DNA of 64,000 bases from Narcine bancroftii (taxonomy: Eukaryota), in contig NC_091480.1 of the NCBI RefSeq assembly GCF_036971445.1, positions 13,392,001 to 13,456,000 on the forward strand, in the 5' to 3' direction. The notes beneath the pieces are model-generated. The model was not told the origin of the DNA, did not search any database, and saw nothing but the letters and a program-made list of their open reading frames with translations. Shown piece after piece: positions 1,284 through 56,100 of the stretch. Position 1 is the stretch's first letter. Every line of letters starts with the position of its first letter. A program made the translations under genes and the position numbers.

Positions 1284-1432
1284 CTCATCAGACAACTCAT
1301 CCAAGATGACTTGAGATAATTCCCTTCTCCATGTAATGGTGGAAGGTACTGACTGAGGTTCGATGCTGTATTCTGATTCCAGCGAGTTCAAAACATCCAG
1401 CAGCACGTAGCCACCAGTCTCCCGGAGAATGG
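1284..1432 (-). CDS. EME2: EME2-like coding exon 2 (no further exons recognised in the window)
   Basis: Acceptor TTTTGTCTTGTTCCCTGCTTAG|, donor GAG|GTAAGA, phase matches exon 1. Reads (A)ILRETGGYVLLDVLNSLESEYSIEPQSVPSTITWRRELSQVILDELSDE, cf. EME2 AILEDAGADVLMEALEALGCECRIEPQ and EME1 IEAQAVPCSVTWRR. Confidence 0.85.
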
Positions 1433-1489
1433 CTAAGCAGGGAACAAGACAAAATCAGTCCGAGTGCAGAACGTACCCACTCAGAACTG

Positions 1490-1815
1490 AAGGCATCTGC
1501 AAGAGGCGGCATCGGAAGGAAGCAATCATGGACCCCCTCCGACCCCCCCCCCTCCCAGACCATGCCCTCTTCACACTGTTGCCATCGGGGAGGGGGTCCA
1601 GGAGCCTGAAGACGAGCACTCAGCGAAGCAAGGGCAGCTTCTTCCCGTCTGCCATCAGATTCCTGAATGATCAATGAACCACAGACTCTGCCTTACTTTG
1701 ATTTTTCTCTGGTTTAATTTGTAATGTGGTTTATCTACATGTTTGCAGTGTGATGCTGCCACACAAAAGCAAAGAATATCATGAGATGTTCATGGCAATA
1801 AATTCTGGTTCTGAA
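1490..1815 (+). mobile_element. Rex1/Babar-type LINE 3' fragment
   Basis: DHALFTLLPSGRGSRSLKTSTQRSKGSFFPSAIRFLN motif; AATAAA-TTCTG tail. Confidence 0.7.
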
Positions 1816-1913
1816 AATAATGGCACTTGGGCTCTCTCACCAAGATCCCATACAGACGCTGTGCGTGAAGACACAACGCTGGAGAAACCCAGCAGGTCCA
1901 ACCGTGTCCTCTA

Positions 1914-2193
1914 TGTAGCAAAGACAAAGATACATAAGCAACGTATCCCGCCTGAGCTCTTCATCAAGACATAATTGTAGCAAAGATAGATACAAAAGCA
2001 ACGTTTCCCGCCTGAGCTCTTCATCAAGACATAATTGTAGCAAAGATAAAGATACAAACGCAACGTTTCCCGCCTGAGCTCTTCATCAAGACATAATTGT
2101 AGCAAAGATAAAGATACAAAAGCAACGTTTCCCGCCTGAGCTCTTCATCAAGACATAATTGTAGCAAAGATAAAGATACATAAGCAACGTTTC
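1914..2193. repeat. Tandem array, 4.5 units of ~62 bp, inside a Penelope-derived inverted-repeat element (~1850-2292)
   Basis: Unit TGTAGCAAAGATAAAGATACAAAAGCAACGTTTCCCGCCTGAGCTCTTCATCAAGACATAAT starts at 1914, 1976, 2036, 2098 and 2160. Confidence 0.9.
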
Positions 2194-2746
2194 GGGCTTG
2201 GACCCTTAAGGGCTCATGCCCGAAACGTCAGTTGGGGATCTATGTCTTTGCTGTATAAAGAACGCCGTTTGTCCTGCATTGTGTTTTTAATTTAACACAA
2301 AGATAGTTCTAACTTTTTGTTTTGTTTTCTGCGTTATTTGATTGCTTGCAAAAGCAAATGTATCTCCAGAACCCACGGGAATGAGATTCTCCCCGCACAC
2401 TTACACAAAGTAACCTTGCACTCTGCAACTTACAAAAACAAAGAACACCGCCAGCCGCTGAGAATGTGAAACACAGCAAACCCTTCAGTCGGAACTTCTC
2501 TACAGTCCACTGGTTCTCAATCATTTTTTCCCCGACCCGTATACTACTTTAAGTAATCCTTTGCCAACCACAGAGCACCTATGGTATAGGATGTCAAAGG
2601 TGCTGTGTGGTTAGTAAGGGATTCCTTAAAGTGGTGTGTGAATGGAGGGGGGGGGGGGTGATTGCTCCAGACCAATGCTGCTTCCCCCCCACCCCGTCTT
2701 TGTTGGAGTGGTGGTCTTACGGGCAGAAAGGATGGCCAGGGCTCAC

Positions 2747-3152
2747 CTGGGTCGACGCACACTCTCATGGACTTCAAGCACTGGTCCGGCCGAATGTACT
2801 TGAGGGCAATGTCTGTGGCCTGTCGCTCGTCCCTCTCCTGCATCTCCACCTCTCTGGCAGCCTTCCTCTCGCGTTGGAGAATGTCGCAGCCCCACTTGGC
2901 CAAGTGGTCGTGCTCGGGGCTGCAGGCTTCCCTGTGCCTGGGGCCGGGCGCCGCCGCTTGCGCTGCGCTGCCTGCTGCGGTGGTCGAGGTCCCTTCCCCT
3001 GCGCTCCCTTCGCGATGCGCCCGGTGGTGGTTGCCCATCGGCGGGGCTGTCACCGGCCTGCTGTCCACCTCGGAGCGGAATCGCTCCAGTTCCGCCAGGG
3101 GCCCCTTCGCGACCAAAGGCGCCCAGTAGAAGAGTCCCGGAGACGGGTACAT
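2747..3152 (-). CDS. EME2: EME2-like (MUS81 partner, ERCC4-like) coding exon 1
   Basis: ATG at 3152 with an in-frame TGA upstream. Ends ...RQATDIALKYIRPDQCLKSMRVCVDP-G|GTGAGC (phase-1 donor), resembling human EME2 ERRAAAEALRLLRPEQVLKRLAVCVDTA. Lies in a CpG island. Start codon less certain than the 3' end. Confidence 0.8.
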
Positions 3153-3650: not shown

Positions 3651-3669
3651 CTGATCTTACACGTTATAA

Positions 3670-9651: not shown

Positions 9652-10623
9652 CTTGTGGAACACATCACATGCCACCATGACCACATCATGTACTTTGTTA
9701 AATTTGAATTGAATATCGAAAGAAATGAACAATGATTATTCATACCATTAGAGCAGAATGCTGGACAATATTTTAAATATTAAACAGTTCTGTAATTGTC
9801 ATGCTTTGCTGACTTTGATCTTGCTGACATTAACTTCATACCATGTTCTGCATTATAATTATTTTTGCTCCATTGACCATAACTGTTTGAGAAATAAATA
9901 CACCAAGCCTATTCACTTGGCAGATGTTAGGAGTGCATAACTTTGCTTGTCAATTCTAATGTACTAAATAAAATAATGTATATATGTATCAAGTAAGTCA
10001 AGATTTGGAAAGTATGATTTTTCACATGGTGGTTGTGTTGGCACATTTACACATACTGTAATTTTTTAAAAATTATTTCAACGCAACAGTTGGGCAGCTG
10101 ATGGCACAAGAAAAAAGCCCAAATTCCCTCTGTATGAAGATTTTGCTTTCTCCGATCTGAAGTGGGAACAGCTTTCGTGAGGAAATATCAATGAATCTAC
10201 CAGGGCTTTGCCAGTAACTAATATGATGGAAAAAAGTTCAAGTTGGCGAGGGACCTTTTTGTTTCAATCGAGCTGGCATTTTAATGACATATAAAACAAA
10301 CTTGATTATCAGAATTCTGTGGGCTCAAGTCTATTTCACTGTCCAGATCTGCAAATGAACGACTAGTTACCTCCACACTGCTATTTCCTTTATGTTACAG
10401 AATGTCAAGATAGACAGGAAAAATTGAGGAGCGCACTTCATTACAATTTCAAGCTGTAGATGATACTGAATATATGCACTTTCATGGCATCATGTGTCAG
10501 ACCATGATTATTAGATGATTCTAAATAAACATTAGACAAAGGGACAATAACATAAGCAGCATTAAATTATACAGTATCTTATTTTTTACTTCAGCTTTAT
10601 ACCAAATATTAAAATTGTGACAG

Positions 10624-10884
10624 TTAACAAACAGGTCGAATAAAGAAAAGGACAACACTTCTTGGATTGACTCTAAAACTGTGTGTGTGGTTTGAATTAA
10701 GAAAGGAAACAAGCTTTTTGTCAAAAACATCATAGACATTGTACCCATGCGCACAGTCCTTGATGCCCAGAGGAGGCAAGCTCAGCGAGAAAGATTTGGC
10801 TCCTCCTCGTTCAGCCGTGTTGAGGTAGGCCAAAGCAAATTGTCCGTGAGCCAGCTTCCTCTTCCAGAGTTGGAAATCTTCATC
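10624..10884 (-). CDS. NAGA-like coding exon 7 (C-terminal beta-sandwich domain, stop)
   Basis: Acceptor CTGTAG|; [40 protein letters not shown]...[17 protein letters not shown]. Confidence 0.9.
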   Translation of the reverse strand, partial: DEDFQLWKRKLAHGQFALAYLNTAERGGAKSFSLSLPPLGIKDCAHGYNVYDVFDKKLVSFLNSNHTHSFRVNPRSVVLFFIRPVC

Positions 10885-13800
10885 CTACAGTTAAGAGTTC
10901 AGGTTTTAAAGTAGCATACGCAATTATATGGTATAGGGCAGCCATTCACAACAAGGGCCCTGCCACCCCCTTGGGGGCCACAGCACATTTAAGTAAAAGC
11001 CTTGTTTTCTTTTCACCTCATGTAACTGTGACGTGGTGCTGCAGCAGTAAGCAGACACAAAACTCAAGAAAGACTATTCGGTTAAAGTCTCTGCTACAGG
11101 GGTAGCTGTACTGGTGGCTCCCAAGTGACTGGCTCGGGAGGGGCCGGCTCAGGATTATATCCCAGGCGGTTAATTGACAGCCGGGTGGGTGGAGTTAGGT
11201 CTATTCAGGTCGGCTGATTGACAGCCAGCCAAGTGTGATCTGTCCTCCTGTGATCTTCCTGCAGGTGCAGAGATCGCCCCCTGCAGTATGCTAGTGGTGT
11301 ATCAACACAGTAACATAAATTTTCTTTAGGGAAAAACATGAAAGTGAGCAGACGCTGTGATTGAAATAAAAACGCAATGCTGGAAAAACTCAGCAGATCG
11401 AACAGTGTACGTTATATAGCAAATATAAGGATACATAGCCAACATTTCGGTCTTGAGTCTTCATCAAGTGCAGATTCACAAGTGAAGTGTTGCTTCATTT
11501 GGAAGGATGATTTGAGGCCCCGAATGGTGGGGGGGGGGGGAAGTTGGGGGCCCTAGTGTGGGACTTCCTGCAGTCACAGGGGAAGGTACCGGGAGTAGGT
11601 AGTGATGAGTAGAACAGGGAGTCGCAGAGGGAGCAAAATGGAGAAGAGGAAGGAAGCTGGTGGAAGGATAAGGTCATTGGTGACGGAAATTGTGGAGGAT
11701 AAAATGTTGGATGTGGAGGTTGGTGGATGGTCGATGAGGTCAGGGGGAATCTTGTTTTTGTTGCGTCTTGGGGCAGAGGGAGCCAGGGAAGATGTGCGGG
11801 GAGTGGAAGAGATGCGGGTAAGGGCTGAGTTAATGGTGGGAGAGGGGAAGCCATGTTTTTTTTTAAAAAGGGCATTTCGGATGTCCGAGACTGGAAGTCC
11901 TCATTTTGGGAGTCGGTATGATGGAGATGGAGGAATGAAGAGGAAGGAATAGGATTCTTACAGTGTGTGAAGAAGTGTAGTCGCGATAGTTGTGGGAGTA
12001 AATATTTTTTATGTAGTTGGTAGGTGAGAAGCAAGTAAGAAACCAAAATTTGACTGCTTCACAGGGAAGGGGGCCCATAAACTTTGAGCAAGGTCATGGG
12101 GGGGGGCATAGTTGAAAAAGGGTTGAGAGTGGTTGATATATAGGGGTCAAATAATATAATAAAAACAAATAATCTGGTCACATTCAACGCCAGAGAGAGA
12201 GAGACAGGAATCATTTTGTTACACTGTAGTTTTGCTGGTTTTTGGTCTTATGAGTCAAGCAAAAGAATGCAAGGAGGAAAAGAACCGCAGAGTAATTAAT
12301 CTTCCTCACTTTATGGCAGCAAATAGCGAATTATTTACAATTCTGTAGTCAGGAAGAGTGACTGCCAAAGCTGTTTTTTAAAAATTTGCAACAAATGAGA
12401 ACAAGGGGGAGGGGGTTTAATTAAGATTAATAAAATTACAGAAAACTTACTTAGGGTAAACAAAAAGGATCTAGATCCCTTTGCTAAATAATAGGTATGT
12501 CGGGGGACCGGGGTGGGGGGCGGGGGGGTGGTGGTAACTGAGAACTTTGTTTCAAGTTCTTGTCCTTAACCAAGCAATGGTTAAGGACAAGAACTCACTC
12601 AAAGAGTGAAGGGTGATGAATGCAGAAACCTTTGACAGATCCAACAAGTACTGTAAGAGCTGTAACACTGGACAACAATTTTTTTCAAAAGGTTTGTTTC
12701 CTGGGGAAAAAAAAAGACGATTCTGCTTGACAACTTCAAGCTGAACACAAAGATAATTTCAGATTTGCCTTATCATGTAGGAATTTGGAGAAACATTAAC
12801 TTTGACTGAATTTAGCATCTGATCAGTGTCCAACACTGATGGATTTTAGTTGCCCTCATACTGCTTTTCCATGGTCGCAATGTCCTGGTGAAACATTTCA
12901 CCATGTTCGTCACTGACTGCACTGAGATCAGCAGGGAAGACGTCCAAATGCGAATGCAGAAAATGAATTTCCAATGACATGTGGCACTTCGTGATTTGGT
13001 ATGCTTGAAGTAGACTTAAAATATGACAGGAAATCACAAAATAGTTTATATCTAAAAAATGATCTGTGATAGGAAAACTTTAAGGCAATTTTCATGATCA
13101 CCAGCCCAAATCTATAAAATATACCCAAAAGTGTTCAGGAAATGGAATATTTGTTGTCTACAAATCTACAAAGCTGTGGATCAAGAGTTTGGATGAAAGA
13201 TCACAAATGGCCTCCTTCTGTGGCTTAGAATGTTATGCTTCTATGAATGATATTGTTAATTATGCTCCCCCCTTCCACAACCTACTCAATGTATAAACGA
13301 AAACAAAATCAGTTACCTTTTTAATTCTAACGCCCTGCTGTCCCAGCTTGTCCTGGTCTATGTAGATAAGCAGCTTGTTTTGCAGAAGTGCCTTGGCATC
13401 ATCGGAGATCGTACGAAGGTCATTCGACATAAAAAAAGGTGCTGCCAATATTGCCCAGATTGCCAGTTGTGCTTTCGATTGGTCCTGATTCAGGCCAAAG
13501 TTACCCACCATTAACTGTAAGTAATAGAGGCAGCAAAGGTTAATTTTTTTAATGTTAGCTCTAAATCATAATTATTGAATTCACGTGAAAAATTATTTCC
13601 TTATATGGCAAACCCACCATCCACGGAACTAACCTATTCAATATTCATCGCACCCTCAATAACAAATACTTCCTTTTTTAGGTAAGGAGGCCAAATTTTA
13701 CACAATATTCCAGGTGTGAATTCCGCAATACAATTGCACTGCAATTTCATTACACCTGCATTTAATCCTCTCATAGTGAATGCAAACATTTGCCGTACTT

Positions 13801-16800
13801 GCACGTTGACCTTCAGAGACCTGTGTACAAACGCACTGTGTCCCTTTGTACATCAGCGCCTCACAATCTCTCATCATGTACCAAATTCTCTGTCCATCAC
13901 CGAATTAATTCTACATAGTAGTTTGCATTAATAATAACTTGATTTTAACCAGGTGGTTTTGAATCTGTTTTGACAGGAGAGTTAAGAAGGTTTATGGGAT
14001 GCTGGGCTTCATTCATTGGGGGACTGAGTTCAAGAGTTGAGAGGTCGTGCTGCAATTCTACAAATCCCTGGTGAGACCACACTTAGAGTATTATGTTAAT
14101 TTCTGGTCACCTCATTAGAGGAAGGACGAGGAAACGATGGGAGAGGGTGCAGAGGATATTTACCACGTTGTTGCCTGGATTGGAAAAGGAGTCTTATGAG
14201 GCAAGGTTAGCAGAGCTGTGACTTTTCCCCCTGGAGCGAAGAAGAATTAGAGTCAACTTAATAGAAGTCTAAGGATTCTGAGAGGTAAGACATAAGGTGG
14301 ACAGCCAATGCCTTTTTCCCAGGCCAGGAGGAGCAAACACCAGAGGACACATGTTCAAATTAAAGGGAGAAAAGTTTAGGGAAGATATCAGCGGTAACTT
14401 TTTTTTTTAAACACAGAGAGTTGCCTTACCAGGGGTGGTGGTGGAGACTGAAACATTAGGGGTATTTAAAAGACTCTTAGATGAAAGAAAGATAGAGGGT
14501 TACAGGGTAAGGAAGGTTTTTTTTGGCAGGAAAATATAGGTTGACACAACATCAAGAACCCCAGGACCTGTACTGTGCTGAAATGTTCAATGTTCTATGT
14601 TTCTAAGTCTCTCTCTTATTCATGTTGTCTCTGTGTGCTTAAGTGTCAGTTGGGACCATACCCCTACAAGTCACAGTTACTATATTGTTGCAAACTATGC
14701 ACGTATGCTGTACCATATCTGGATCATTCCATCTTCCCGGACCTGCAGCTGGTTGCAAATCTTCTTGGTGATCTCCAAACCAATTTATAATTGCTATCAC
14801 TTTATTCCATGAGTCATTGATATCATCATAATTCCTCCACAGATTGCAGAGTTGACTAACTAGAGTATAATTCACCTGAAGGAAGGTCAGAGACAAAAAA
14901 AAATGCTTTATACAATAATGGGTAGTTAGCTGCAACAGGACGTGGAGACTTGACTTTAGTAAAACAAATATAAAATGCATTGGATCAAAAGAGAAAGAGA
15001 GAGGTAGTGTAATTTAGAGCAAGAAATCCAGAGCTTAAGGCCAACACAAGTTGAGACATGAATGTAATTGTGGATTGAGAAATGTTGGGCATGTGCAAGA
15101 AGCTGAAATGGAAGAGGATTGTAGAAAGGGTCTGAGAAGTCTGGAGTCATGGAGGATCCTTGAAACAAGAGGGGGAAGTTCAAAGCATTGCCAGACCAAC
15201 AGCTGGCAGGGTTGGTAGGTGAATGGGACTGGGTGCAAGTGAAGACACAAGCTGTCAATGAACTCAGGTGGGAGGTATCACGGTGCATGTTGCTTCTGGA
15301 ATTGGGATCATTAAGTACAACACAACCACCTTTTTACTGAAGGTCTGCAAGGACCACTCCCTCTGTGACTCCCTCATTCGCTCATCGCCCCCTTTCCACC
15401 TTCCCCTGCAACCACAGGAAGTGCCACACCTACATCCACACCTCCTCCCTCCCTACCATTCCGGACCCCAATCAGTTCTTTCAAGTGAAGCCACACTTCA
15501 CTGTGTATTTGCAGGAGTTACTTACTGTATCCGGTGCTTCCCACTGTCGCCTTCTCTACATCAGAAAGACCAGATGAAGACTGGGAGATCGCTTCATTGC
15601 GTACCTTCGCTCTGTCCGCATCAGTGACAGGGATCTCCCAGTGGCCAACCACTTTAATTCTGTGCCCAACTCCCATGCTGACATGTCTGTCATGTCCTCA
15701 TGTACTGTCCCACCAAGACCACCAGTAAATTGAGCACTTAATTTTCCATCTGGGCACTCTCCAACTGGATAGCATTAACATAGACCTCTACAGTTTCTGC
15801 TACCCTATTCTTTGCTCTTCATCCCTTCCCTTTCCCTTTGTCTTCTTTCCTCCAGAGCTCCATCCCCTTTCCTCTCTATAAACAGAGACACCCCCCCCCC
15901 CTCCTCCTGCTTGCTAGTGTTCCCTCCCTCCTTTATCCACTAACCCCCTCCTGCCTTTGGGAGTCTGCTATTTCCTCTGCCCTCCCCCACCATTTGTTTG
16001 GGCGCCTGTCGATAGTTTGCTCATACCTTGATGAAGGGCTCAAACCTGCTGAGATTCTCCAGCACTGTGTTTTATTTCTGCAGTGTCCGCAGACGTTCAT
16101 GTTTTACCCCTTTTACAGAAGATAACTGACCAGCAATTTCCCCCCAAGTCTGTAGAATTGAAGTTCCACATGCTACCATCTCTTTCTCACTATACTCTCA
16201 TTCAGTCCAGTCATTTCAATGGAATGAATACAAATATACAATGTGATATGGTTATTGTACAACAGCACCACCAATTGGGGATGAAGTTCAAGGCAACCAA
16301 TGAAGGGCCCCACAGCAATTGATTGAGCGAATCTAAAACTAGCACAAAGTAGCCAAGAGGATAAGATGCCTGAAAGATCAGAGTTATGGAGGCCTTAAAT
16401 AATGTTGAAAAGCTCAAATATTGACGTTTGACTGCTATCTCTTTGGACCCCAGCCTTTCATAATATATACTCCATACTGGGTCCATGGGTAAGCCTTTAC
16501 AGTAGTAAAGCACAGTATGAACCAGCTAGTGGTTGGTTATAAAACTAATCCCGGAAAACCGGAACTCTGAGTATATGTGCTTGTTGGTAGTCCTGGAAAA
16601 CGGGGACACCGGAGTACATAGACTGGTTGGTAGTCCCGGAAAATCAAGACATAGAGTCCAAAGTGCTAAAAGTTTCTCATCTTGACTTCACACCATCAAA
16701 TAGTGAATCAAGGTCACCTGCTTGAACATCATAACAATCGCGCTTATCTATTCATTTGCAAATGCTTTTCAAATATGCGAAAGTGTTGGACTGTCAAGGG

Positions 16801-19800
16801 TGGCGGCAATTTTTTTTTAAGTTTGTAATTATTCTAAAAAAACATTTCTGGCATAAATCTGCTGGCAAGATGAGCATGGAGGCTACTTAATCAACTCTGA
16901 GTCAAATTGATGCAATGTCACACTTACTTGGTAAAAAACGCATCAGAGTCGTACGGTTACAGGGTTAAGAGAAGGAAATTTGCTTTTTATATCTAATCCA
17001 GATACTTCTTTACCATTCATACTATCGTTTTTTATATTTTATTTAAAATCAACACATATATGACAATTTTTACAATAAAATAATGTCACATTGAAATAGA
17101 ACTTACAAATAGATGCTGATTTATATATATATATTTATATGTATATAAAAAAGAAATTTAAAAAATTTAAAAAACCCATATAAACCCCAATAATCTCTAC
17201 CCCCCCCCCAACCCCAACCCTTGCTACTCCTACTAAAAAACTAATATCTAAAATATATAACATAGTTATACATTGAATTGGATTGCTTCAAAAGATGCTC
17301 AGAGATCCCCCCAAAAAAAACATTATTGATTTTCAGGGAAGACTTCACTGGTGGTTTGCCATTTCCTAACTTTAGATTTTATTGCTCGGCGGTCAATATA
17401 CGTAACTTGATTTTTTAAAATTACAATTTGATATACCAAATTGACCACCCCACTGGGGTAGAAATGGAACTAAACTTTACAAGAATATTTCCATGTTGGC
17501 AATTCTTGGGGCTTCTTTATCCTCTTCCTTAGACAAACGAACTGACAACCCGGTTGCTAAACACAGTTTGAGAATATCGGCAAAATTTAGAACGTTTTTT
17601 GGATTTCAGAGCTTTTCTCTTGCTCACCCTATTACGTCCAGTCACCTCTTTCAACCATCTTTGCAAGACTCTGCCTTCAAGGATTGGCACAGTCTGGGTA
17701 TTAAATGTTTTAAAGTCATTTTTACTGACAACAATTTTGCATCTTTTGAACAATTTGTTGTAAAATTTAACGTATTGAAAACTAATTTTTTATTTTTTTA
17801 AAAGATATTTACAATCTCAGATTCCTGATTTTCCTGGGAATCCAGAGGCAAATATTCTTGATACATATTTTGAACTACAACCTCCTTATAAAGGCTTAAT
17901 ATTGGCTGATTTAAGACAGACGGTTAATTAAAATTAAGAACACCTGGGAGCAGGACTTGAAGTTTACGCTGTCCAATGAGGTTTGGAGCTCCATTTTTCA
18001 ACTGATTAATACTACATCCCTTTGTGCATGGCACAGTCTGGTGCAATTTAAAGTGGTTCATAGAGCACATATGTCTAAATTAAAATTGTCTCAGGGTGAT
18101 GCTTCTTTAATTCATATGTTTTGGACCTGACTAACTTAGGAAAATTTTGGAAGGATGTTTTTCAAACATTATCAGAGATTTTAAATTTAAAATTGGAACC
18201 AAGCAATTCAATTGCTCTTTTTTGGAACATTTCGAGAAGATGATATGTTACTTCAATTCAATGCTGTGTTTTATCTTTTATCTCATTGATAGCCAGATGT
18301 GAAATTTGATTAAATGGAAAAATAATACTCCACCTACACACGCACAATGAATATTATATCTTGTTTAAATTTGGGAAAAAAAATTAGATATGAGGGTTAA
18401 TAACTCAAATATTAAATTTCAAATGATACGCACCTTGTAGTTGGATGACTACCATAATCTTAAGATTTAGTGTTAAACTGGAATCTTGGCGTTGTGCTGT
18501 CCCTCTCTAAGTCTGCGCCACCTGGATTTATTAATGATAATCTTCAACCTTGCTTTGGAGAAGGGGGTTTTGAAATTTAATTATCTTTTTTTGTTTCTTC
18601 ATTGTTATGTTCTATTTTAGTACCTTGAATGTGCTTTGGAACTTATAACTTTTTTCTGATCTTGTAGCACACTTCATAACTGTATTGTTCAATTTTTTTT
18701 TTAATTGTAAAATATCAATAAAAATATTTTTTGGAAATAAAACACTCCTTCCTCCTACCTTTGGCAGTAAACCATCTTCATAAGCAGGCCAGCTACAAGA
18801 ATACACAATTGGCCTTCCTGTGGCATTGAGAGCATAGCTCATCTTTGGATAACCTGAGGAACAGAACACAGGTTTCAACTCATTGCCAATCATTTGCAAT
18901 TTTATCACTACTTTTTTCAATCTGTGACAGACTTCTGAAGGAAAATAATTTAAATGTTTTTGATAATATGACAAACTGAAGCATATAATTGTGGTGTGGA
19001 TTGTGGAGGGCCACGTGACCTCTCTGACTGGAACCTGGTCGGATTGTGGACTGCGGAGATACATCTGACATTTCCGACAAGCCTGAGATCGGAAGTGACT
19101 TCACCTGCCAATCAAGGGTTTGATCTGCAACAGGTGAGGTTGACAGGCAATTGGTTCGATCAGGTCACATAAACCTGATTGAAAAGGCAACACAATCCTG
19201 CTTGTTCTCTTTTGTTGCTACCTCAAGACCATTACTGAAGTCCAGACTTCAGGCCATGGGCTGCACTGGAGGGCCAATTGCAATGGGCCTGTCCAGGATC
19301 CTGAGCTGAGGGCAATACTAGAAACTACGTTCGTTTGATATACTTGTTAGTTGTAATTAATTTACTGTTCATAAGTGTGCTGTGCCTGTGGGTGGATGGG
19401 TAATTTGTGTTTAACCCTTGAATTCCCATTTGAGAGTTGAGAATGTTAAGAAATGATTTATTTGCACCCCATATGCAGTTATTTGTGTATTGTTGCTGTG
19501 TATGTACCAAGTAAGTATGTATGAGTGTGTGCTTTATGCATAAATAAAGACCACTGTTTGTTAATAACACATGTCCGTCCAGCCACGATTCTCTTTGAAC
19601 CCGTCAAACCTATTCAGAACACAACAACAATTATTCAAAAACAAGGATGTTAGTGTGCAACTAATTCAAGTTTTTGACAGTGAGGATTATTCATTGTCCT
19701 TGTAAATTTGAACTCAATTATCTTTTTAACGTGTGCCTCCTGTTTATTTAGGGAGCCATTATGTTAGCACTTCAAAATCTTAGAGAGGTACCTATTGATC

Positions 19801-22416
19801 TTTCAGTAGAGTTGGAATTACAACCATCGAGCTTCAGCATGTCTACTTCCCATTCTGCAAATGTCCTGGCATCAAGGTCAACTGTCTCTAGTAAGGTACC
19901 GAGATACCCACCACAGGTTGAGTGGCCCAAGTCTCCATAAATCCCTAGCTTCAATCCTTTGAAATGAACCTAGCATACATAAAGATCAAGAAATAAATAT
20001 AGTTTCAACATGAATAATTATCTTACTTTGTGGAGATATTTTTCTCTACTTAAAGTCTGAAGAAGAATGCATATTTTATTTGCCCCTTCAGGAAACAATC
20101 TGTCTCATTGAAGATAATCAACACAATCCATTGTTATCATGGTAAACAAAAGGTTTCTTAATTTCTTAAGTTGCTCCTTACGTTTAGAGTTTTAACTTAC
20201 TTTAGCGTTTATATACTTTAATTTAACTTATTTTAACATTAACTTTTAGTGTTTTAACTTACTTTTGGTGTTTTAAACAAGTGGTATCTTAACTTTTCAA
20301 GTGGCTCCTTGCTTTTTAAAAATTGTACACAATAATTGGAACCAGACATTTGTTTTCAATGAGTCCTGGTACAAAATGTCTCCTGGGGCGAGTGGAGGAG
20401 TCTCATTACCAAGGGCCAGTGGCACTAAAGTCCAAAATACTGAGCAGAATGCAAAGGTGAAGTAAGAACAATTAAAACTGACTGAACTAAAACAAGATCA
20501 CACCTGATCACTTAAAGGTGCATCTGAAATTTTATTTTCCAAATACATTTATCCAAAATTATGAAAGCTTACTAATTAAAATTATCTTTAATAACTGTGC
20601 AAAGGGTTTCTTTTTACTATATGGGTATTAGAATCTATTCTACTTTAAATTCTATTTGCAAGCTCATATATTGAAATATTATTTATAAGAAACAAAATAT
20701 TCGAGGATGAACAAAAACAAAAATGATTTAGCTAAAGTGAAAGTCAGATGAGTTTTATAGCAGGTCATTAAGAGTATTGATAAACTCGCCCGATTCTCTA
20801 AATGATTCAGGTACAGTGGGAGTTCCCATAGATTGAAATTTTCTCTGCTTTTGCAGGAGAAATCCTAAAATCCAGGCTGCTCGGGGATTGGGCTGGATAG
20901 GATTTTCAAGCATGTAATGCTTGGAAATTATGTCTAAAAATGAACATTGTCAAAGAAAAATGCAGGATACAAATTAATTTCTTTGTGATATATTTACCTG
21001 TATAAAGCGTGGTCACTTGTTGCCACTGAGCACCTGTGGTGCTTAGACACACACACAAAAGCCCACTAAAATTTAAAGGTTTCAGAGTTTTCAAAATGTG
21101 CGGATTCTCAGATGGTCCAGATTTCTGGCATCCGGATTTTTGGACTTCTACTGTATTTTACATCATTCATAAACAAGGCAAGAATAGATGTAATCATTTT
21201 CTAGCTATTTGTCAGGTCATTTCCATCCTGATATTTGGAAGATAATTATAATTCTTCATGCAAAGGACACCAGCCCATTAAAGGAGAAGAGAAGGGTAGA
21301 AGAGAAGGTTACTCACATACTCAGCCAGTCCTTTAATCCCACTTGGGAATCGGTCTGGATCTGGCTGAAGTTTTCCATTGATATCTCTCACCATCGCTGA
21401 CCAACAATCGTCAATGTTTACATATTGATACCCCAGATCTTTCCAGCCATCTTCCACCAGCTTGTCCGCCATTGCCCTAAACAACCTTTCACTGACAGAG
21501 AGGAAAATCCAAGAGGATCTGATTTATTTTAGTTATTAAAATTATTTTAGAATGATGCATGTGTTGTTGGCAAGGTCTCACTAGAACACTACACTATAGC
21601 TTAGAAACAGCCCCTTTGGCCCATCTAGTCCATGCCAAACTATTATTCTGCTCCGACCCAGAGTAAATTTCCCATCTCTAAATGTCCCTGAGGAGAACCA
21701 CTTCCACGAATCACTCTGGGAGATTAATGGGGTTAATGGGTGAGCCATTGATGGTCAGTCTCTCATACACCTGAAGCTCTTGTCCTCTTTGATGGTAGAT
21801 GTTGTGGGTTTGGGAACCAATGCCAGGGTAGACAAGAGAAGTGACTGTGGCTTTTGTGCAGGACTGGTGGAAGCAATGAAGTAGATTGTTTGTCTCAAGC
21901 TTTTTGACTTGCCACTCCCAAACAGAAAAAAGGAGTGAGCCAACAAAAAATAAACGTAACAGGAGAAACAGAAAATAAATCCTTGAGCTGCTTCTTGGGG
22001 CAGAGACTGGTCTTCAACCTGAAGCGTTAACTCTTTTTCCTCATCCTATAAATGTAGCCTGACTTGCTGAGTGATTCCAGCGTTGTAAATGAATGAGCTG
22101 GAAAGACAGTGACAATTTATGCTTTCTTGCTTGATGTTTGTGGATTTTATTGACAGGGGCTTGAGGCTCACAACTCATATTTGCATAAATCATTTGCTTG
22201 GTTTGAAACACATTCAGAATCCCGTCTGGATACTGCTTGAAGAGCCTACCTGATACAGTTGTCAGGGTATAATTTGCAATCCGTTGTGCATTTGAAACGT
22301 TCCCAGGCTATCCAGCCCATTGGAGGAGTTCTTGCCAAACCATTATCCAGAGGCTCACATAGCCCAACTAGTGTCAGGTACAAGGATATGAAAAGGACAA
22401 GAGTTCCACAATGCAT
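10624..22416 (-). CDS. GH27 alpha-N-acetylgalactosaminidase-like lysosomal glycosidase, 7 coding exons, 411 aa (probably a NAGA paralog rather than the ortholog)
   Basis: Exons 22416-22250, 21491-21317, 19969-19792, 18853-18759, 14875-14714, 13514-13317 and 10884-10624 all have GT-AG boundaries and join in frame (1236 nt). Signal peptide, [25 protein letters not shown] (nucleophile Asp), CSWPAY, WRNYDD (acid/base Asp), [11 protein letters not shown]. Confidence 0.93.
11027..11309. mobile_element. Solo LTR (283 bp)
   Basis: TGTG...CACA termini, exact 5-bp TSD GTAAC (11022-11026 and 11310-11314). Confidence 0.8.
11335..11990 (-). mobile_element. Penelope-like element fragment
   Basis: [13 protein letters not shown] Cys-linker remnant upstream of GIY-YIG, plus terminal repeat with TTGATGAAG...CCGAAATGTTGG. 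Confidence 0.7.
12666..13158 (-). mobile_element. Non-autonomous Chapaev3-like DNA transposon
   Basis: TAA-CACTGGACAACAA TIR; transposase C-terminal remnant [44 protein letters not shown]. Confidence 0.7.
13317..13514 (-). CDS. NAGA-like coding exon 6
   Basis: 198 nt; [66 protein letters not shown]. Confidence 0.95.
13975..14605 (+). mobile_element. CR1 LINE 3' fragment (degenerate)
   Basis: [12 protein letters not shown]...FWSPH remnant, TRGH motif, TTCTATG tail. Confidence 0.75.
14714..14875 (-). CDS. NAGA-like coding exon 5
   Basis: 162 nt; [54 protein letters not shown]. Confidence 0.95.
15340..16105 (+). mobile_element. Penelope-like element 3' part (GIY-YIG endonuclease remnant plus terminal repeat)
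   Basis: [21 protein letters not shown]...CRLLYIRKT...RLGDRF...[10 protein letters not shown]; ends CATACCTTGATGAAGGGCTCAA. Confidence 0.8.
17330..18740 (+). mobile_element. L1/Tx1-type LINE ORF2 3' part (degenerate)
   Basis: [23 protein letters not shown] and ASLIHMFWT remnants; AATAAA/A-rich tail ending ~20 bp from a NAGA-like splice donor. Confidence 0.75.
18759..18853 (-). CDS. NAGA-like coding exon 4
   Basis: 95 nt; (G)[31 protein letters not shown]. Confidence 0.95.
18990..19626 (+). mobile_element. Solo LTR (637 bp)
   Basis: TGTGGTGT...ACACAACA inverted termini, TSD ATAAT/ACAAT, AATAAA near the 3' end. Confidence 0.75.
19792..19969 (-). CDS. NAGA-like coding exon 3
   Basis: 178 nt; [59 protein letters not shown](G). 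Confidence 0.95.
21317..21491 (-). CDS. NAGA-like coding exon 2
   Basis: 175 nt; (S)[58 protein letters not shown]; donor GTGAGT. Confidence 0.95.
22250..22416 (-). CDS. NAGA-like coding exon 1 (exon starts at 22427)
   Basis: [55 protein letters not shown]; donor AG|GTAGGC; acceptor T-run CCCCAG| 11 nt upstream of the ATG. Confidence 0.92.
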
Positions 22417-22989
22417 TCAGGCCCACTCTGGGGAAAAAAAAATCCAAATTTATTTTGTTACAATTCCTTTTTTTTTCACCCGAGTCAATGATTAAAACAG
22501 AATGTCTCTGACATTAAAAAAAATCCCAAAGGACTCTTTAAAATTTATAATGATTCTAATTTTTCGAGATACAGAATGATAACAGGCCCTTTCTCTCCAT
22601 GAGCCACCCACCCACCCCCCCCCCCACCCAAATCAATTAACCTGCAAACCCCATATTTTTTTGGAGGGTGGGAATAAACTGGAGCACCCAGAGGAATCCC
22701 ACATGGTCAAGAGGAGAATTTACAAACTCTTACAGACGGTGCCAGATTCAAACCCAGATCACTGACACGGTAAATAGCATTGAGCAAACCCAATAACTTT
22801 TGAACTGAACATGCATCAGATTCTTAGTCTTTTACCTTTTAAAAAAAAAAAGAACCTTTTTACATCATCTATTTTTCTCTTCTCAGGTGTCTTAAAAGAT
22901 TCATGTGCATTAGAACTCAACCGAAATTCAGCACTCTTGCTGGCAAGTCAGTGACAAGGATTCTTCTCTTGCCTTGTGGTCAATTGAAT

Positions 22990-23544: not shown

Positions 23545-24700
23545 GAGATGCGAGGCCTGTGACCTGTGGTGTGCCTCAGGGATCAGTGCTGGGACCATTG
23601 TTGTTTGTCATCTAAATCAATGATTTGGATGATAATGTGGTAAATTGGATCAGCGTGTTTGTAGATGACACAAAGATTAGAGGCATTGTGGAGAGCGAGG
23701 AAGGCTTTCAAAGCTTGCAAAGGAATCTGGACCAGCTAGGAAAATGGGCTGAGAAATGGAAGATGGAATTTAATGCAGACAAGTGTGAGGTGTTGCATTT
23801 TTGAAAGACAAATCAAGGTAGGGCATACATAGTAAATTGTAGGGGACTGAGGAGTGTGGCAGTACAGAAAGATCTGGGAATACAGATACATAATTCCCTG
23901 AAAGTAGCATCACAGGATAGGGTTATAAAGAGATTTTTTTTAATATTGGTCTTCATGTTAAGGTGAAGTTGTATAAGACATTGGTGAGGCCAAATTTGGA
24001 GTATTATATGCAGTTTTGGACACCCAACAACAGAAAAGATATAAAATTGAATAAGTCCAGAAAAGATTTATTAGGATATTACTGGGACTTCAGGAACTGA
24101 GTTACAGGGAAAGATGAAACAGGTTAGGACTTTATTCCCCAGAGCATAGAAGAATGAGGGGAGATTTGATAGAGTTATACAAAATGATGAGAGATATAGA
24201 CAAAGTAAATATGAATGGCTTTTTCCACTAAGGTTAGATGAGATATAAACTAGGGGACATGGTTTAAGGGTGAAGGGGGAAAGGTTTATGGAAACATATG
24301 GGGGAATAGAGAGTGGTGGGTGTGTGGAACGAGCTGCAGCTAAAGTGGTGAATGTCGAATCCTGAGTTCAAATAAAGTAAACACTCTGAGGTGGAGTTCA
24401 AATATGTTCAGTCTTTATTATCTCTTACTCCCACTCGTGATTCTGTTCAACACGACTCCCTCATGGTTCTCTGCAACATGCCAGCCATTACAATCGATAA
24501 CCAAACTATTATTTATCACGACTGCACTACAGTGAATGCGGCCTCAATTTTAACATTAAATAAAAATTTGGACAGGTAGATGGTTGGGAGGCGTATGAAG
24601 GACTATGGACTGGGTGCAGGTCAGTGGGACTGGACAGAGAAATGGGTCGGCATATAGAAGGTCTGAAAGGCCTGTTTTCTGTGCTGACAGGTTCTATGAA
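23545..24700 (+). mobile_element. CR1 LINE 3' part (RT to tail), interrupted by a solo LTR
   Basis: GVPQGSVLGPLLF...MEFNADKCEVLHF remnants. Confidence 0.85.
24353..24531. mobile_element. Short solo LTR (179 bp) inserted in CR1
   Basis: TGT...ACA termini, exact TSD GTGAA (24348-24352 and 24532-24536); CR1 sequence resumes after it. Confidence 0.8.
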
Positions 24701-26249: not shown

Positions 26250-26840
26250 TTTAAAGGACCACCGGAGAAGAGAGTGGGTTCACCGAGATCGCGGTCACTT
26301 GCCTGACACCTCACTTCAGGCTGAATGGGTTTCGCGCAACATCACTGAGTTGGATCGCAAACGAAGTCTCCAAACAGAAGAAACACCATGAAGCCCTTTA
26401 ACGGGGCTAACGAAGGGAATTGGAAGAGGCGAACTCCCTGGACAGGGGGTTAAAACGAATGATCCTCATTTCTTTGCCCGGACCAGGGGGCATCCAGGAA
26501 TTTGGTGGCCAGGAGGAGGTGGACCGTCCCTGCTGATGTTGTGTGATGTCAGCGTCTTCTGGCTTGTGGGCATCGGAAGCACAGTTCTCTCCGAGGACAG
26601 GGGAGACGTGCCAGACCAGACGCGGCAGTGCCCAGGGACCGAGAAACTCCGAGCCGCTGGGTTCTCTGGTCGTTGACACCGAAAAACTTTGAAGGATTGT
26701 CAGCGATGTGGAGACTTCACTGGGAAGGAAGCGATCCGCACCGTCACTCAAACGGGAACAAAGAACAAGTCACAATAGGTTAACTGAGGCTAATACAGCA
26801 TTGAACACCGGGCAGTGAGCGGGACGGTTCAGACCAGAAC
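26250..26840 (-). promoter_or_regulatory. CpG-enriched unique segment, candidate promoter / non-coding first exon of the NAGA-like gene
   Basis: Local CpG enrichment ~4 kb upstream of the ATG exon, which has a splice acceptor and so needs an upstream exon. Minus-strand donor candidates GAA|GTGAGG (~26316) and CAG|GCAAGT (~26302). Confidence 0.35.
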
Positions 26841-27425
26841 CGCTGGTGAACGAAGATTTTGCTTCCTTAACACTTCGGGGTGGATTTTTCTGCTGCAGAT
26901 CACAAAAATCACTTGAAAATGTTTCCTGTCTCTTACCTTTTTGTAAGATATAACCCTTTTTTTGTGTGTGATTTCCTGTCATACTTTGAACATGCTTCAA
27001 GCAGACAAAACCATGAAGTGCAAAAAACATCTCAATGAAAATTCATTTTCTGCATTCTTGGTGCAGTCAACGAGGAAAGTGGTGTTAAAGGTTCCACGGG
27101 GACATTGTGACCATTGAGAAGCATCAGGGCAACTGGAATCCATCAAATGCTGGACGATGTTTGGAAACTGACAAGAGAGGCATCAGATGCTGAGTACAAA
27201 CGAAAATCAGCAGCAAAACCATTTTTAGGTCAGTTGCACAGGTAATGTGGCAGCATCATTAAGTGATTAAACATACTAAATTCAATACAAGTTAATTTAA
27301 TGTTTCTCTAAAGTCCAACTTCTGACATGATACAGCAAATCTGAAGTTATCTTGAAGTTAACTGTCATAATCCCGAATTTTTTTCAGGAAGCAAAACCTT
27401 TTGGAAAAAAAATTGTTGTCCAGCA
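26841..27425 (+). mobile_element. Non-autonomous Chapaev3-like DNA transposon (opposite orientation)
   Basis: Degenerate TIRs CGCTGGTGAACGAAG...TTGTTGTCCAGCA; reverse complement of the other copies. Confidence 0.65.
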
Positions 27426-53100: not shown

Positions 53101-56100
53101 AAGAGTATAAAAAGCTATTCCACAGTTTAACATTCATTGGAGAAACTGGTCTTTAAAGGTTTGTGTGAGTCAGATACACCAGACACTTTTTTTGTTGCAG
53201 GTCTCCACTGCCCTATCCTGGAACAGAGAGGGACTATGAGGTAAAGTAAATATCATTAATTATTTCAATGTACAACCGTTAAGCTTAGTCCTTTCCTCAC
53301 CTATTGAGTATGAACTGTCTCCATTTCAGGGCCAGTTAGAGTTACACGATAAACGTGAGGTTTACTAATGGCAATGTCCTGTGAATTGAGAAAAATTTTA
53401 CTGTTGAACTTAAGATGGAGGAGATAAATATCCTAAAGGTAAATTAGGATTCTAATCATGTATTTTCAAGATAAGTGGTGAAATAAATCAGAACATTTAG
53501 TAATTGGGAGTAAGATCCAATTCCTACTCTCAGACGTATGGATTATTTGTTTGCATTACTAAAAGGAAAGATCGTTGAAAAAGGATGCATAGCCTGATTG
53601 ACCATCTGATGTTCTATCCGTTCATTAAAATTGGTTACTGTTTTTTTCCCAATAGTTCTGGAACCTATGCCACTAAATGTTCAATCCACCGTGACTTGGG
53701 ATAGGAACTTGCTTCTCGTCCCCTTATGTTCCATGTAATTTCAAAGAATAGGTGTGATGTCACCTAATAAGAAACACGAAATGGTCTGTTTTCTCTGCTC
53801 GGGCATCATGAAGTTTAAAACTTTAATGTTGTACTGCAAAAATTAGATGGAGCAAATCCATTGCAGCTGACATTGTATTTTACTTGATGTAATGCGATGT
53901 TTTCTCTGATACAGTCATGGGAAAATGGAAATTAAATCACTTCAGTGGGAAATTGAAGAATAATGGCAAAGAACATAAATATTGACAAGGAAATTAATTA
54001 ACATTTCAGGCTTGTGTTTAAGCAGAGCAAGAAAGAGAATCATTTGTTTTGAAATGTCATGGCAATAGTAAGTTTCTCAACAATTAAACACTTGGGGGGT
54101 ATATATCCCAAGATTTTAAGCTTTACAAATAAAATATTTTAAATTTGCATTGTTATGCAACTATATTTCATCAGAGAAGGAAGAAATAAAGGAACATGGT
54201 TGATGATGGTGTCTCTTGAATGGGATGTTATCTGGGAGGAACGTGGAGGTATGGTTCCTGTTTTAAGGAACATTTCTAAAGTGGGCTAGAAGAACAAAAA
54301 AGTGTTGCATGAGGGGCAAAACAATGATAATTTATTGAAGGAAGAGTAATCAGATTGAGGAAATGGGTGAGCAGAGGTCCTCCTATTGGACATGAATTGG
54401 ATTATTTATTGAATTGAACTGTTTATTGTCACGTACTGAGATACAGTGGAAAACTTTATTTTGCATACTATTGGGAAAATCAACCAAAACACGGTGCAAA
54501 AATCAAAAGAAAAGTTCAGGGAACAGTATCAGATTAAAAACAAAAAGTTCAGGATATAGTTGTTAAAAGATAAAAATCTTTGTCTAATGGAAAGTCCATT
54601 CAAGAATTTGATAACCGCAGGAACTGTCCTTGAATCTAGAAGTGAGTGTTTTCAAACTCGTGTATCTTCTTCCTGACTGGAGTGGATTATGACCTATATT
54701 ATGTTGGAAGTTTTCTTGAGGCAATGGAAGTTGTAGATCGAGCCATCAGAGGAAAGGTTGGTTTGTGTGACAGGCTGAGCTCCATTTACAACTCCTTGCA
54801 GTCTTGGGCAGACCATTTCCCTTATCAAACTGTCATGCAATTGAACAGGATAATTTTATGATACATCTGTAAAAGTTGATCGGGCACTGGGGCATGCTAA
54901 ATTTCTTTAGGCTTCTGAGGAAGTGGAGGACTGGTTCCTGGTTCAACCATCTCAATGTGTTAGACCAGGGACTGGTTATTGGAGTTATTTTCTCTGAGGA
55001 ACTTGAAGCTCTCCACCATCTCTACTTCAGCACTTTTGGATACAGGCAGGAGCATGTGCTCCATTTCGTTCCGTTTTAAGAATATGTTTCAAGATGTGTG
55101 ACTTGTATAATTTTACTTTCTAGGTATTTCTTCAAGAACTTGTGAAAAATTTGTATGATGAGGGAAATGATAAGTTCAGAGAAGGAAATTGGGCTGAAGC
55201 TTTGAATAATTATACTGAGGCCTTGAATGTGGCCGATTATGCATCTGAAGAAATCAGTATTGTGAATGGATTAATAGAGAAACTTTATGCCAATCGTGCA
55301 GCTTGCTATTTGAATATGGTAAGATTTTTTAAAATTGTAATATAGGACAAATGCTTACCGAGAAACGTTCTCAATGTTTGATGGCGAGAATTAAGACCTC
55401 TCAATCACAATTCATCATGTTATTTTGCTTCAGGGGAATCAGTGTTAAGATGGACATTTTATTTTACTTTGTTGTGGACATTTTGACTCTGACATCACAA
55501 CCGATGATCCCAGTCGTGTTCCAAGCAATGACTCTTAGGACAAATCACAGGATAACTTTATATCCCACAGTTTATTTTCACTGTATAGGTTTGTTGAATG
55601 CTAAAACTAATTGTCTCCAGCATAACATATGCTAACATAAATCATTATATTTGTTGTGTATTTCTTGTAATTTCAGGGTCTCTATAATCAAGTATTAAAG
55701 GATTGTGACAAGGCTTTGCAACTGAATCAGAATAACTACAGAGCACTTTTTCGAAAAGGGAAATCCTTGAAAGAATTGGGAAAGCATAAAGAAGCCTATG
55801 ATGTTGTTGCAAAGTGTTCTCTAGCTGTGCCACGTGTAAGGAAATGCCATTTAAATCTCCATATGTTGCCTAATAACTTTTCCAGAAAAGATGATTCGGA
55901 GCCCTGCCCTGTGGTTTAATCTTACTTTTCAAAATGTACTTATTGAGTTTAACACAAGGCGAACTAATGATAACATAAATCATATACATATCAAATGTAA
56001 ATTGAGGCATAACCATAATTATTACATAATTTATTCAAAACAAATTCTATAATTATAATAATTAAATCATAATTTGTACCATGTCTGAAAATAATATTGA

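Follow-up and report, generated by a model that had tools for sequence, protein, structure and literature searches.

Gene structure and transcript

We analyzed a 64,000-nucleotide stretch of the genome of Narcine bancroftii (the window). An intact GH27 gene lies on its minus strand (10624-22416), flanked by an EME-family gene and a ZC3H7-like gene. The coding sequence is 1236 nt long (411 aa plus stop), free of internal stops, and divided into seven coding exons of 167, 175, 178, 95, 162, 198 and 261 nt (phases 2, 0, 1, 0, 0, 0) by six introns, all of them GT-AG. Coding exon 1 (22250..22416, -) holds the ATG, the predicted signal peptide (residues 1-22), the start of the barrel domain and W38, and the mature protein begins, in the alignment, where the solved chains of NAGA and GLA have their residue 1. 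Exon 2 (21317..21491, -) codes for D83, D84 and C85, and exon 3 (19792..19969, -) for Y125, C133, K160, C164 and the predicted nucleophile D162 (codon at 19828-19826). In exon 4 (18759..18853, -) is found the CSWPAY loop with S194, A197 and Y198; this N-acetyl recognition loop has the NAGA length and is longer than that of GLA by one residue. Exon 5 (14714..14875, -; phase 0-0) contains R219, the predicted acid/base D223, D258 and M259, while exon 6 (13317..13514, -) carries the dimer-interface F265 (F273 of GLA) and the end of the barrel. The entire C-terminal beta-sandwich is in exon 7 (10624..10884, -), with C369 and C411, the latter immediately followed by the stop codon. The 3' UTR (10273..10623, -) has an ATTAAA at 10285, and the contigs terminate at 10273.

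Introns 1, 2, 3 and 6 appeared joined in contigs of all four runs (one study, the RNA data type being presumed). In a contig of 1701 nt, exon 3 is separated from exon 6 by 255 nt, a length that fits exons 4 plus 5 (no joints of introns 4 or 5 were among the matches listed). Exon 7 was 100% identical to the RefSeq NAGA-like isoform X3 of N. bancroftii, and residues 1-372 were 100% identical to isoform X2. Splice sites and contigs confirmed what the initial annotation had described, an intact frame of 411 aa over seven coding exons with a CSWPAY loop and the C-terminal domain in one exon. The figure of seven holds for the coding exons and not for the total. An untranslated leader of 11 nt (22417..22427, -) lies behind a splice acceptor (pyrimidine tract and AG directly upstream), and contigs X1-1 and X4-19 have 100 extra nt 5' of 22430, so that an upstream untranslated exon probably exists, with at least eight exons in all. 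Its place can only be suggested: the contig-covered, CpG-rich stretch at 26251..27000 (no strand assigned) is a candidate promoter or first exon, with no link to the mRNA among the rows listed. Besides, exon 5 has a weak donor and is skipped in some transcripts (isoform X3 lacks it, and the exon has its own contig in three of the four runs). The skipping removes the exon that holds the predicted acid/base D223.

Phylogenetic placement and species distribution

Three GH27 proteins were found in N. bancroftii, on separate contigs: the NAGA-like protein of the window, a NAGA (P0087) and a GLA (P0308). The window protein is 59% identical to the NAGA, 52% to the GLA and 88% to the NAGA-like protein of Pristis. 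In a tree of 66 rows a third clade was recovered (99/97) that joined NAGA (100/100) with GLA apart (100/100), and a mixture-model tree of 26 rows gave 99/98 for the third clade and 100/99 for its union with NAGA. AU tests on the full protein rejected the grouping of the third clade with GLA (p 0.0002), and AU tests also rejected a duplication of cartilaginous fish inside NAGA (p 3e-7). These sequence comparisons place the window gene in a third vertebrate clade, as sister paralogue to NAGA, and the duplication that gave the pair is older than the split between sharks and bony fish. The position of the lamprey was ambiguous (75/44 in the mixture-model tree; AU p 0.41), so the duplication can be dated only to before that split. 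The trees left out amphioxus, tunicate and hagfish, and the outgroup was not a single clade in the 66-row tree.

The initial annotation had proposed a gene orthologous to neither NAGA nor GLA, and this stands. Orthology to GLA would go with an E203/L206 loop, the C378-C382 pair and nesting with GLA, none of which was found. The situation that the annotation had named as fatal to its claim, nesting in NAGA with no second NAGA locus, was checked and did not occur. A plain NAGA orthologue that was translocated and lost introns agrees with the database names (NAGA or NAGA-like) and with NAGA as the best solved-structure match, but is refuted, and practically without probability, by the separate P0087 that nests among other NAGAs, by the presence of both types in at least nine species, and by the tree placement and the AU test that rejects the nesting.

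The clade comprises sharks, rays, chimaera, bichir, sturgeons, bowfin, coelacanth, amphibians, turtles and squamates. Absences were judged from the best 120 of 1338 matches, ranked by likeness to the window gene, and from one published table (Hara et al., 2018; PMC5901865). No third-clade copy of mammals, birds, crocodilians or teleosts was among those 120, and the gene was likely lost in these four groups; the loss in mammals that had been proposed is thus supported but is too narrow. Actually, the existence of the gene was already tabulated in 2018, and the third paralogue is not novel as had been supposed. Table S10 of Hara et al. (2018) contains it as orthogroup AmnPhylome_0000865_sub_002, 'alpha-N-acetylgalactosaminidase-like (LOC102938681)', an 'elusive' gene with NAGA as the listed paralogue and orthologues in 0 birds and 0 mammals. 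The orthogroup has nine species (two turtles, five squamates, Xenopus and the coelacanth) with cartilaginous fish absent, and the NAGA-like gene is not taken up in the main text. Its Thamnophis member, XP_013925122.1, is our P0452, which scores as third type (+130 bits) and whose cluster representative P0048 shares the 99/97 clade with proteins of Xenopus, Gekko, turtle and coelacanth. What is new here is the presence in sharks, rays, chimaera, bichir, sturgeons, bowfin, salamanders and caecilians, the observations on structure and neighbours, the C369/C411 pair without tail, the skipping of exon 5, and the test showing that the Xenopus 'naga' is a third-clade gene. No dedicated study turned up in our literature search, which mostly did not cover subscription journals, and the four supplementary files of Hara 2023 (PMC10208646) gave no NAGA match in the part available.

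The Xenopus 'naga' (NP_001107689.1, AAI54864.1; L and S copies of X. laevis) belonged to the third clade and not to NAGA in the trees, and its placement inside NAGA was rejected (AU p 0.006). Among the best 120 of 1338 matches, all 25 named amphibian rows fell in the third clade, and 15 of the 20 named frog proteins carry the plain name NAGA despite belonging to the sister clade. Xenopus is also absent from the NAGA row of Table S10 (PMC5901865). Apparently Xenopus has no true NAGA, and frogs seem to live with the third-clade copy only. This orthology correction matters in practice, as the wrong gene would be used when Schindler disease is modelled in frogs or when species are compared.

Active site and predicted function

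The Pristis orthologue has the two domains expected of GH27, the barrel (PF16499, 2.6e-143) and the C-terminal beta-sandwich (PF17450, 3.7e-12), and its structure model (pLDDT 92) has chicken NAGA 1KTB as top match (TM 0.92). D162 and D223 align with D170 and D231 of GLA, the GH27 Asp pair, described in PMC8234732 as catalytic nucleophile and acid/base. All 15 of the GLA active-site positions listed there map to NAGA-type residues in the window protein, from which NAGA chemistry is predicted. S194 and A197, kept in 22/22 third-clade rows, form a NAGA-type loop, and the equivalent pair of positions acts as a specificity switch (PMC5645117, PMC5478728). Two indels of the barrel are common to the third clade and NAGA, against GLA. 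The signal peptide, the sequons (five N-glycan sites predicted), the acidic pI and F265 are all kept.

Comparison with known enzymes gives the same picture. Vertebrate NAGA (human 3H53, chicken 1KTB, Narcine P0087) shares with the window protein the fold (TM 0.91-0.92), the whole set of pocket residues, four barrel disulfide pairs, the loop length and F265; in contrast, the window protein belongs to a separate clade (55-61% identity within a species), has no intron in the C-terminal domain and no tail, and possesses C369/C411 and other indels in domain II. With GLA (human 1R46, Narcine P0308) it shares the fold, the catalytic pair, seven coding exons, some domain II residues and the intron positions, which fall at GLA codons 65, 123, 183, 213, 267 and 333. 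However, it has S194/A197 in place of E203/L206, is only about 52% identical, does not group with GLA over the full protein, and has neither the two deletions of the GLA barrel nor its C378-C382 pair. GANA-1 of C. elegans, left out of our trees, has the same S/A recognition loop but is an invertebrate single-copy gene with 5 exons, whose one enzyme acts mainly as alpha-NAGA and to a minor degree as alpha-GAL (PMC548690). Such a dual activity is likely the ancestral state.

Taken together, we consider it probable that the window gene codes for an intact GH27 glycosidase and is the NAGA sister paralogue, likely derived from an early vertebrate genome duplication. Its product is predicted to be a lysosomal alpha-N-acetylgalactosaminidase that forms dimers and is to a large extent redundant with NAGA. 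The signal peptide and the five N-glycan sites would serve its delivery to the lysosome. The reaction there would be a retaining double displacement in which D162 attacks and D223 is the acid/base, with the small S194 and A197 leaving room for the N-acetyl group, the main substrate being terminal alpha-GalNAc and the activity on alpha-Gal weaker. Redundancy of both copies would account for a patchy and partly reciprocal pattern of loss, of the sister copy in mammals, birds, crocodilians and teleosts and apparently of NAGA in Xenopus. The pair gives a clean case of this kind of duplicate loss. On the other hand, sharks, turtles and lizards have kept both copies for more than 400 million years, which counts against full redundancy.

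The same origin could go together with a distinct job, a different aglycone or glycolipid preference, partner, stability or compartment, due to the rebuilt C-terminal domain and the pocket-side changes of sharks and rays. This domain is on average 29% identical to that of NAGA, compared with 73% in the barrel, and exon 7 holds 16 of the 18 clade-diagnostic columns. C369 is present in 33/34 and C411 in 30/34 non-frog rows, and the tail has a median near 0 residues (11-37 in NAGA). Removal of the tail alters the activity of GLA, according to PMC8234732. Besides, N165, D200 and L137, beside the pocket, depart from the NAGA consensus in sharks and rays. Nevertheless, the fully NAGA-type pocket, the retained targeting and dimer features and a sister copy that seems able to replace NAGA in frogs make a distinct job unlikely, and argue against the distinct glycan specificity that had been suggested. 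In a more elaborate form, which we find similarly doubtful, the ancestor of jawed vertebrates had a third lysosomal alpha-galactosaminidase whose putative disulfide-stapled, tail-less C-terminal domain confers a stability, partner or glycolipid preference of its own; frogs would use the enzyme in place of NAGA, and sharks and rays would tune it through substitutions beside the pocket and through skipping of the acid/base exon. Frogs have largely lost C411 (present in 1/21 rows) and in part C369 (15/21), and their proteins carry a short tail. The gene represents no new kind of system, and the result is real but modest. It does provide a natural GH27 scaffold with a NAGA-type pocket and a different second domain, at a time when engineered NAGA is under study for Fabry therapy (PMC5478728).

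Neighbours and origin of the C-terminal domain

The exons of the neighbours came from a loosened splice-site scan, the strict one giving fragments only. Downstream, on the same strand, is an EME-family gene (1284..3152, -), likely EME2, of which the first two exons were located (3152-2747 and 1432-1284). Exon 1 matched EME2 only (weakly, E 0.048), and exon 2 preferred EME1 (E 0.0012 vs 0.95). A bamboo-shark gene model fuses the third-clade gene with this same EME neighbour (168.7 vs 161.8 bits in the EME1/EME2 comparison). Upstream, on the opposite strand, a ZC3H7-like gene (55124..60351, +) is represented by three TPR-region exons (55124-55318, 55677-55835 and 60271-60351), and in the ESM Atlas a TPR exon matched unnamed TPR clusters only. 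This gene may be ZC3H7A. Of the EME2/ZC3H7A synteny announced by the initial annotation, the EME and TPR families of the neighbours are upheld, with EME2 and ZC3H7A as candidate labels. Two group-10 phospholipase A2 proteins of snakes in a NAGA-like cluster did not match the GH27 proteins compared by BLAST and have no synteny value.

ZC3H7A and ZC3H7B form a pair, and ZC3H7B is located in the human 22q13.2 region, near NAGA. Human NAGA is at 22q13.2 (PMC5478728), and CBP (16p13.3) and P300 (22q13.2) are another pair between the 16p13 and 22q13 regions (PMC9690401). The window gene and NAGA are likely ohnologues from whole-genome duplication, as had been proposed, a view that draws on the duplication before the shark/bony-fish split and the ZC3H7-like neighbour, and partly on human map positions and weak identifications of the neighbours. 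An ancient small-scale duplication followed by transposition would suit the single lamprey cluster of NAGA/third type seen, but appears improbable given the ZC3H7-like gene beside the window gene, the CBP/P300 link, the conserved EME neighbour in the bamboo shark, and the treatment of such pairs as early-vertebrate duplicates by Hara et al. (2018; PMC5901865).

The C-terminal domain might also suggest a true mosaic, with a NAGA-derived barrel and a GLA-derived last exon acquired by gene conversion or exon shuffling. The last exon scores nearly the same with GLA and chicken NAGA (17.7 vs 17.4 bits), is 31% identical to that of Narcine GLA and 23% to that of Narcine NAGA, and shares F329, N347, G352 and F357 with GLA; the AU test on this domain alone keeps the grouping with GLA (p 0.49). 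Against this, clade averages of domain identity are 29.0% to NAGA, 27.5% to GLA and 25.9% to invertebrates, the best trees of the domain place the third clade with NAGA (85/99, a single long outgroup falling within; 58/88), and C382 of GLA aligns to Y373, the same as in NAGA. Several of the residues shared with GLA are present in outgroups too (G352 is G in 7/9 outgroup rows, and G385 in 6/9). As the GLA-like traits are largely common to invertebrate outgroups, a mosaic is unnecessary and seems very unlikely; of the 'mosaic or ancestral state' put forward at first, we retain the ancestral part, although the C-terminal domain alone is not decisive. The gene has likely kept its seven coding exons and GLA-like C-terminal residues from the ancestor, and NAGA is likely the changed copy, with an extra intron and indels, the C369/C411 pair and the absence of a tail being the clade's own traits. 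Human NAGA has 9 exons with the C-terminal domain split by an intron (PMC548690), which in the undivided exon 7 of the window gene is absent. One NAGA isoform of a shark stops at the alignment column that holds N374/V375 of the window protein, hinting at an intron in the C-terminal domain of shark NAGA.

Three GH27 genes in Narcine and the third clade

We have searched the proteins of Narcine bancroftii for its NAGA and GLA, and found three GH27 proteins in all, encoded on contigs of different size (third-clade gene, 103,180,129; NAGA P0087, 94,862,116; GLA P0308, 179,661,875). The window protein was 59% identical to the Narcine NAGA, 52% to the Narcine GLA and 88% to the NAGA-like protein of Pristis. 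Third type and NAGA were both present in nine species: Narcine, Pristis, Heptranchias, Callorhinchus, Polyodon, Erpetoichthys, Gekko, Sphaerodactylus and Euleptes. In a tree of 66 chosen rows (22 third clade, 19 NAGA, 16 GLA and 9 invertebrates; LG+G4) the window protein fell inside the third clade (99/97), which was sister to NAGA (100/100) with GLA separate (100/100). The outgroup did not form one clade here, and a long snail branch joined GLA. With a mixture model over 26 of these rows the supports were 99/98 for the third clade and 100/99 for third plus NAGA. This clade of its own, together with the separate NAGA and GLA, bears out the initial annotation, which had proposed a third GH27 paralogue orthologous to neither. 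The gene is a real, intact and under-studied paralogue whose identity had been read correctly.

Over the same 26 rows the AU test rejected a third plus GLA grouping (p 0.0002), Xenopus naga within the NAGA clade (p 0.006) and a duplication in cartilaginous fish that unites their third-type and NAGA copies (p 3e-7). A lamprey position outside both third and NAGA was not rejected (p 0.41). Since support for lamprey with NAGA falls from 97/85 in the 66-row tree to 75/44 under the mixture model, the third clade and NAGA can be said only to have split before sharks and bony fish diverged.

Some minor observations concern the other GH27 genes. In bichirs NAGA and GLA were on contigs of the same size (P0093/P0301 in Erpetoichthys, P0112/P0207 in Polypterus; 164,003,311 and 181,559,541) and may share one chromosome, unlike in Narcine. 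For the Narcine GLA two RefSeq accessions, each on its own contig, give the same sequence; the second would be a duplicate, either recent or produced by the assembly. The elopomorphs Albula (P0076/P0103) and Megalops (P0073/P0115) have two NAGA-clade proteins each, separate from the third clade and probably teleost-duplication copies. A GLA-type Glu/Leu loop was found in the invertebrate proteins P0097 (Littorina), P0156 and P0157; the grouping of P0097 with GLA is weak (83/87, on a long branch). Two readings are possible: a GLA lineage that predates vertebrates, or a switch with more than one origin.

Gene structure and transcripts

Seven minus-strand coding exons were found where they had been placed originally (22416-22250, 21491-21317, 19969-19792, 18853-18759, 14875-14714, 13514-13317 and 10884-10624), with six introns, all GT-AG, and an intact frame of 411 residues closed by a single stop. 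The RefSeq 'alpha-N-acetylgalactosaminidase-like' protein of this electric ray agrees fully with exon 7 in its isoform X3 and with residues 1-372 in isoform X2. Contigs from four public runs (one study, presumed RNA) joined introns 1, 2, 3 and 6 in all four, and one of 1701 nt extended from exon 1 to 10273, with 255 nt separating exon 3 from exon 6, a length in keeping with exons 4 and 5; an ATTAAA is located at 10285. Two contigs carried 100 extra bases 5' of 22430, so an upstream untranslated first exon is likely, and the count of seven exons is that of the coding part.

Exon 5 encodes R219 and D223, and its donor is weak. It was absent from isoform X3 and from a bamboo-shark gene model, and was a separate contig in three of the four runs; the skipped form would be inactive. 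In isoform X2 an internal donor in exon 7 after H371 (10745 region) is joined to a short minus-strand exon (4526-4472), 1.4 kb upstream of the EME gene, which takes the place of the last strands and C411; this isoform is likely a non-functional read-through.

Predicted activity and the C-terminal domain

We compared the 15 GLA active-site positions listed in PMC8234732 with their window equivalents (W38, D83, D84, Y125, C133, K160, D162, C164, S194, A197, Y198, R219, D223, D258 and M259). Only S194 and A197 differed from GLA, and both matched NAGA in 22/22 third-clade rows; exchange of these two loop positions interconverts GLA and NAGA specificity (PMC5645117, PMC5478728). Also kept were the four barrel disulfide pairs, five sequons, a hydrophobic leader and F265, equivalent to F273 of GLA, a dimer marker in PMC548690. 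The model of the Pristis orthologue (pLDDT 92) matched chicken NAGA best (TM 0.92; GLA 0.91). From sequence and model the enzyme would be expected to act in the lysosome as a dimeric, retaining alpha-N-acetylgalactosaminidase, with a lesser alpha-galactosidase activity. All the sequence tests made point to a NAGA-like action, and the enzyme is the orthologue of neither NAGA nor GLA. A distinct glycan specificity, raised originally as a possibility, would not be expected from S194/A197 and other active-site positions that are all NAGA-type.

On human GLA the introns of the window gene fall at codons 65, 123, 183, 213, 267 and 333, which we take to be the GLA exon boundaries; human GLA isoforms have an exon inserted after residue 64. 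NAGA exons 2-7 are the counterparts of GLA exons 1-6 (PMC548690), and therefore all three genes share the six introns. What sets the architecture of NAGA apart is its extra intron in domain II, hinted at by a shark NAGA isoform that stops at the column of window N374/V375.

The initial annotation had left open a mosaic or an ancestral state, and had called for a GH27 tree on the full length and on single domains. The third clade was recovered; over 42 of the 66 rows third plus NAGA had 100/99 with the barrel only and 58/88 with the C-terminal domain only, the latter being indecisive, as third plus GLA was not rejected (AU p 0.49). This value would allow a mosaic gene with a GLA-like domain II on a NAGA-type barrel. 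Two barrel indels group the third clade with NAGA, and GLA-shared residues such as G352 and G385 were also found in outgroup rows (7/9 and 6/9), NAGA being fixed for its own states. The third-clade domain II stands at much the same distance from all three groups, with a mean identity of 29.0% to NAGA, 27.5% to GLA and 25.9% to invertebrates. Ancestral retention of the GLA-like traits would be the simpler reading of these sequences, and the mosaic the less simple.

Exon 7 holds 16 of the 18 clade-diagnostic columns. Outside frogs, C369 was present in 33/34 third-clade rows and C411 in 30/34 (misses include truncated isoforms); in frogs the figures were 15/21 and 1/21. With the four barrel pairs accounted for, no other cysteines remain in the mature protein, and in the model the two stand on either side of strands 373-377 and 401-409, so a C369-C411 disulfide would be likely. 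NAGA has a tail of 11-37 residues in 19/19 rows, whereas the window protein ends at C411. These tails end in Leu in 17/19, as do many GLA tails, often in Leu-Leu or Phe-Leu; in the third-clade rows compared with them a tail was mostly absent.

Range, earlier records and neighbours

We surveyed the best 120 of 1338 matches, ranked by likeness to the window gene, and typed them by profiles built from subsets of those rows: 56 were assigned to the third type and 62 to NAGA, and 2 were ambiguous. One of the 56, a snail protein, was outgroup by tree. The remaining 55 comprised 7 cartilaginous fish, 1 coelacanth, 4 non-teleost ray-finned fish, 2 caecilians, 3 salamanders, 21 frogs (20 named), 3 turtles and 14 squamates (13 named), with no mammal, bird, crocodilian, lungfish or teleost; because of the ranking, absences from the best 120 of 1338 are weak by themselves. 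Every one of the 25 named amphibian rows among these 120 was third type; of the 20 named frog rows, 15 are called simply NAGA. The Xenopus naga entries NP_001107689.1 and AAI54864.1, together with the two X. laevis copies, belong to the third clade.

In Hara et al. 2018 (PMC5901865), Additional file 9 (rows 115-116) enters 'alpha-N-acetylgalactosaminidase-like (LOC102938681)' among the elusive genes, with NAGA as its partner, in nine species (taken from gene ids). The row is without three mammals, two birds, two alligators, gar, zebrafish and stickleback; no bird or mammal orthologue is recorded there, 112 mammalian and 68 avian gene sets having been searched deeper. These records and the lack of mammals among the best 120 of 1338 matches agree with the loss in mammals originally proposed. 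The NAGA row, as tabulated, has no Xenopus gene, the Thamnophis accession given is P0452, a third-clade member, and the accessible main text does not discuss the gene. Our literature searches found no paper devoted to it. Its existence and mammalian loss stood in the Hara et al. table already; added here are the records from cartilaginous and early ray-finned fish, the tested misnaming in frogs, the C369/C411 pair and the skipping of exon 5.

An EME-family gene, with its first two exons at 3152-2747 and 1432-1284, starts 7.5 kb downstream on the same minus strand; its exon 1 matched EME2 weakly and its exon 2 preferred EME1. A Chiloscyllium punctatum model that fuses the third-clade gene to the same EME gene scores both EME labels alike; this fusion suggests that the two genes are adjacent in sharks too. 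On the plus strand, from 55124, are three TPR-region exons that we take to be ZC3H7A; we assume human EME2 and ZC3H7A at 16p13 and ZC3H7B at 22q13. Human NAGA at 22q13.2 (PMC5478728) and the CBP 16p13.3/P300 22q13.2 pair (PMC9690401) fit a duplicated region.

Between the third-clade and TPR genes a Myb/SANT-like DNA-binding domain ORF (33563-33838, plus; PF13873, 7e-16) and a further ORF (39100-39615, plus) probably form a transposon-derived element. LINE-type endonuclease/reverse-transcriptase fragments with stops lie at 5834-8864 (plus), 34670-36553 (minus), 42709-43512 (minus) and 46175-46768 (plus), one of them, near full-length, lying between the 3' end of the gene and the EME gene. An inverted long repeat pair (23706-24626 and 28541-29434, 78-84% identical) stands either side of the candidate promoter. 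Two snake group-10 phospholipase A2 proteins (P0451, P0453) appear in the NAGA-like cluster of P0048 without a BLAST match to it, possibly linked via an unlisted fused gene model.
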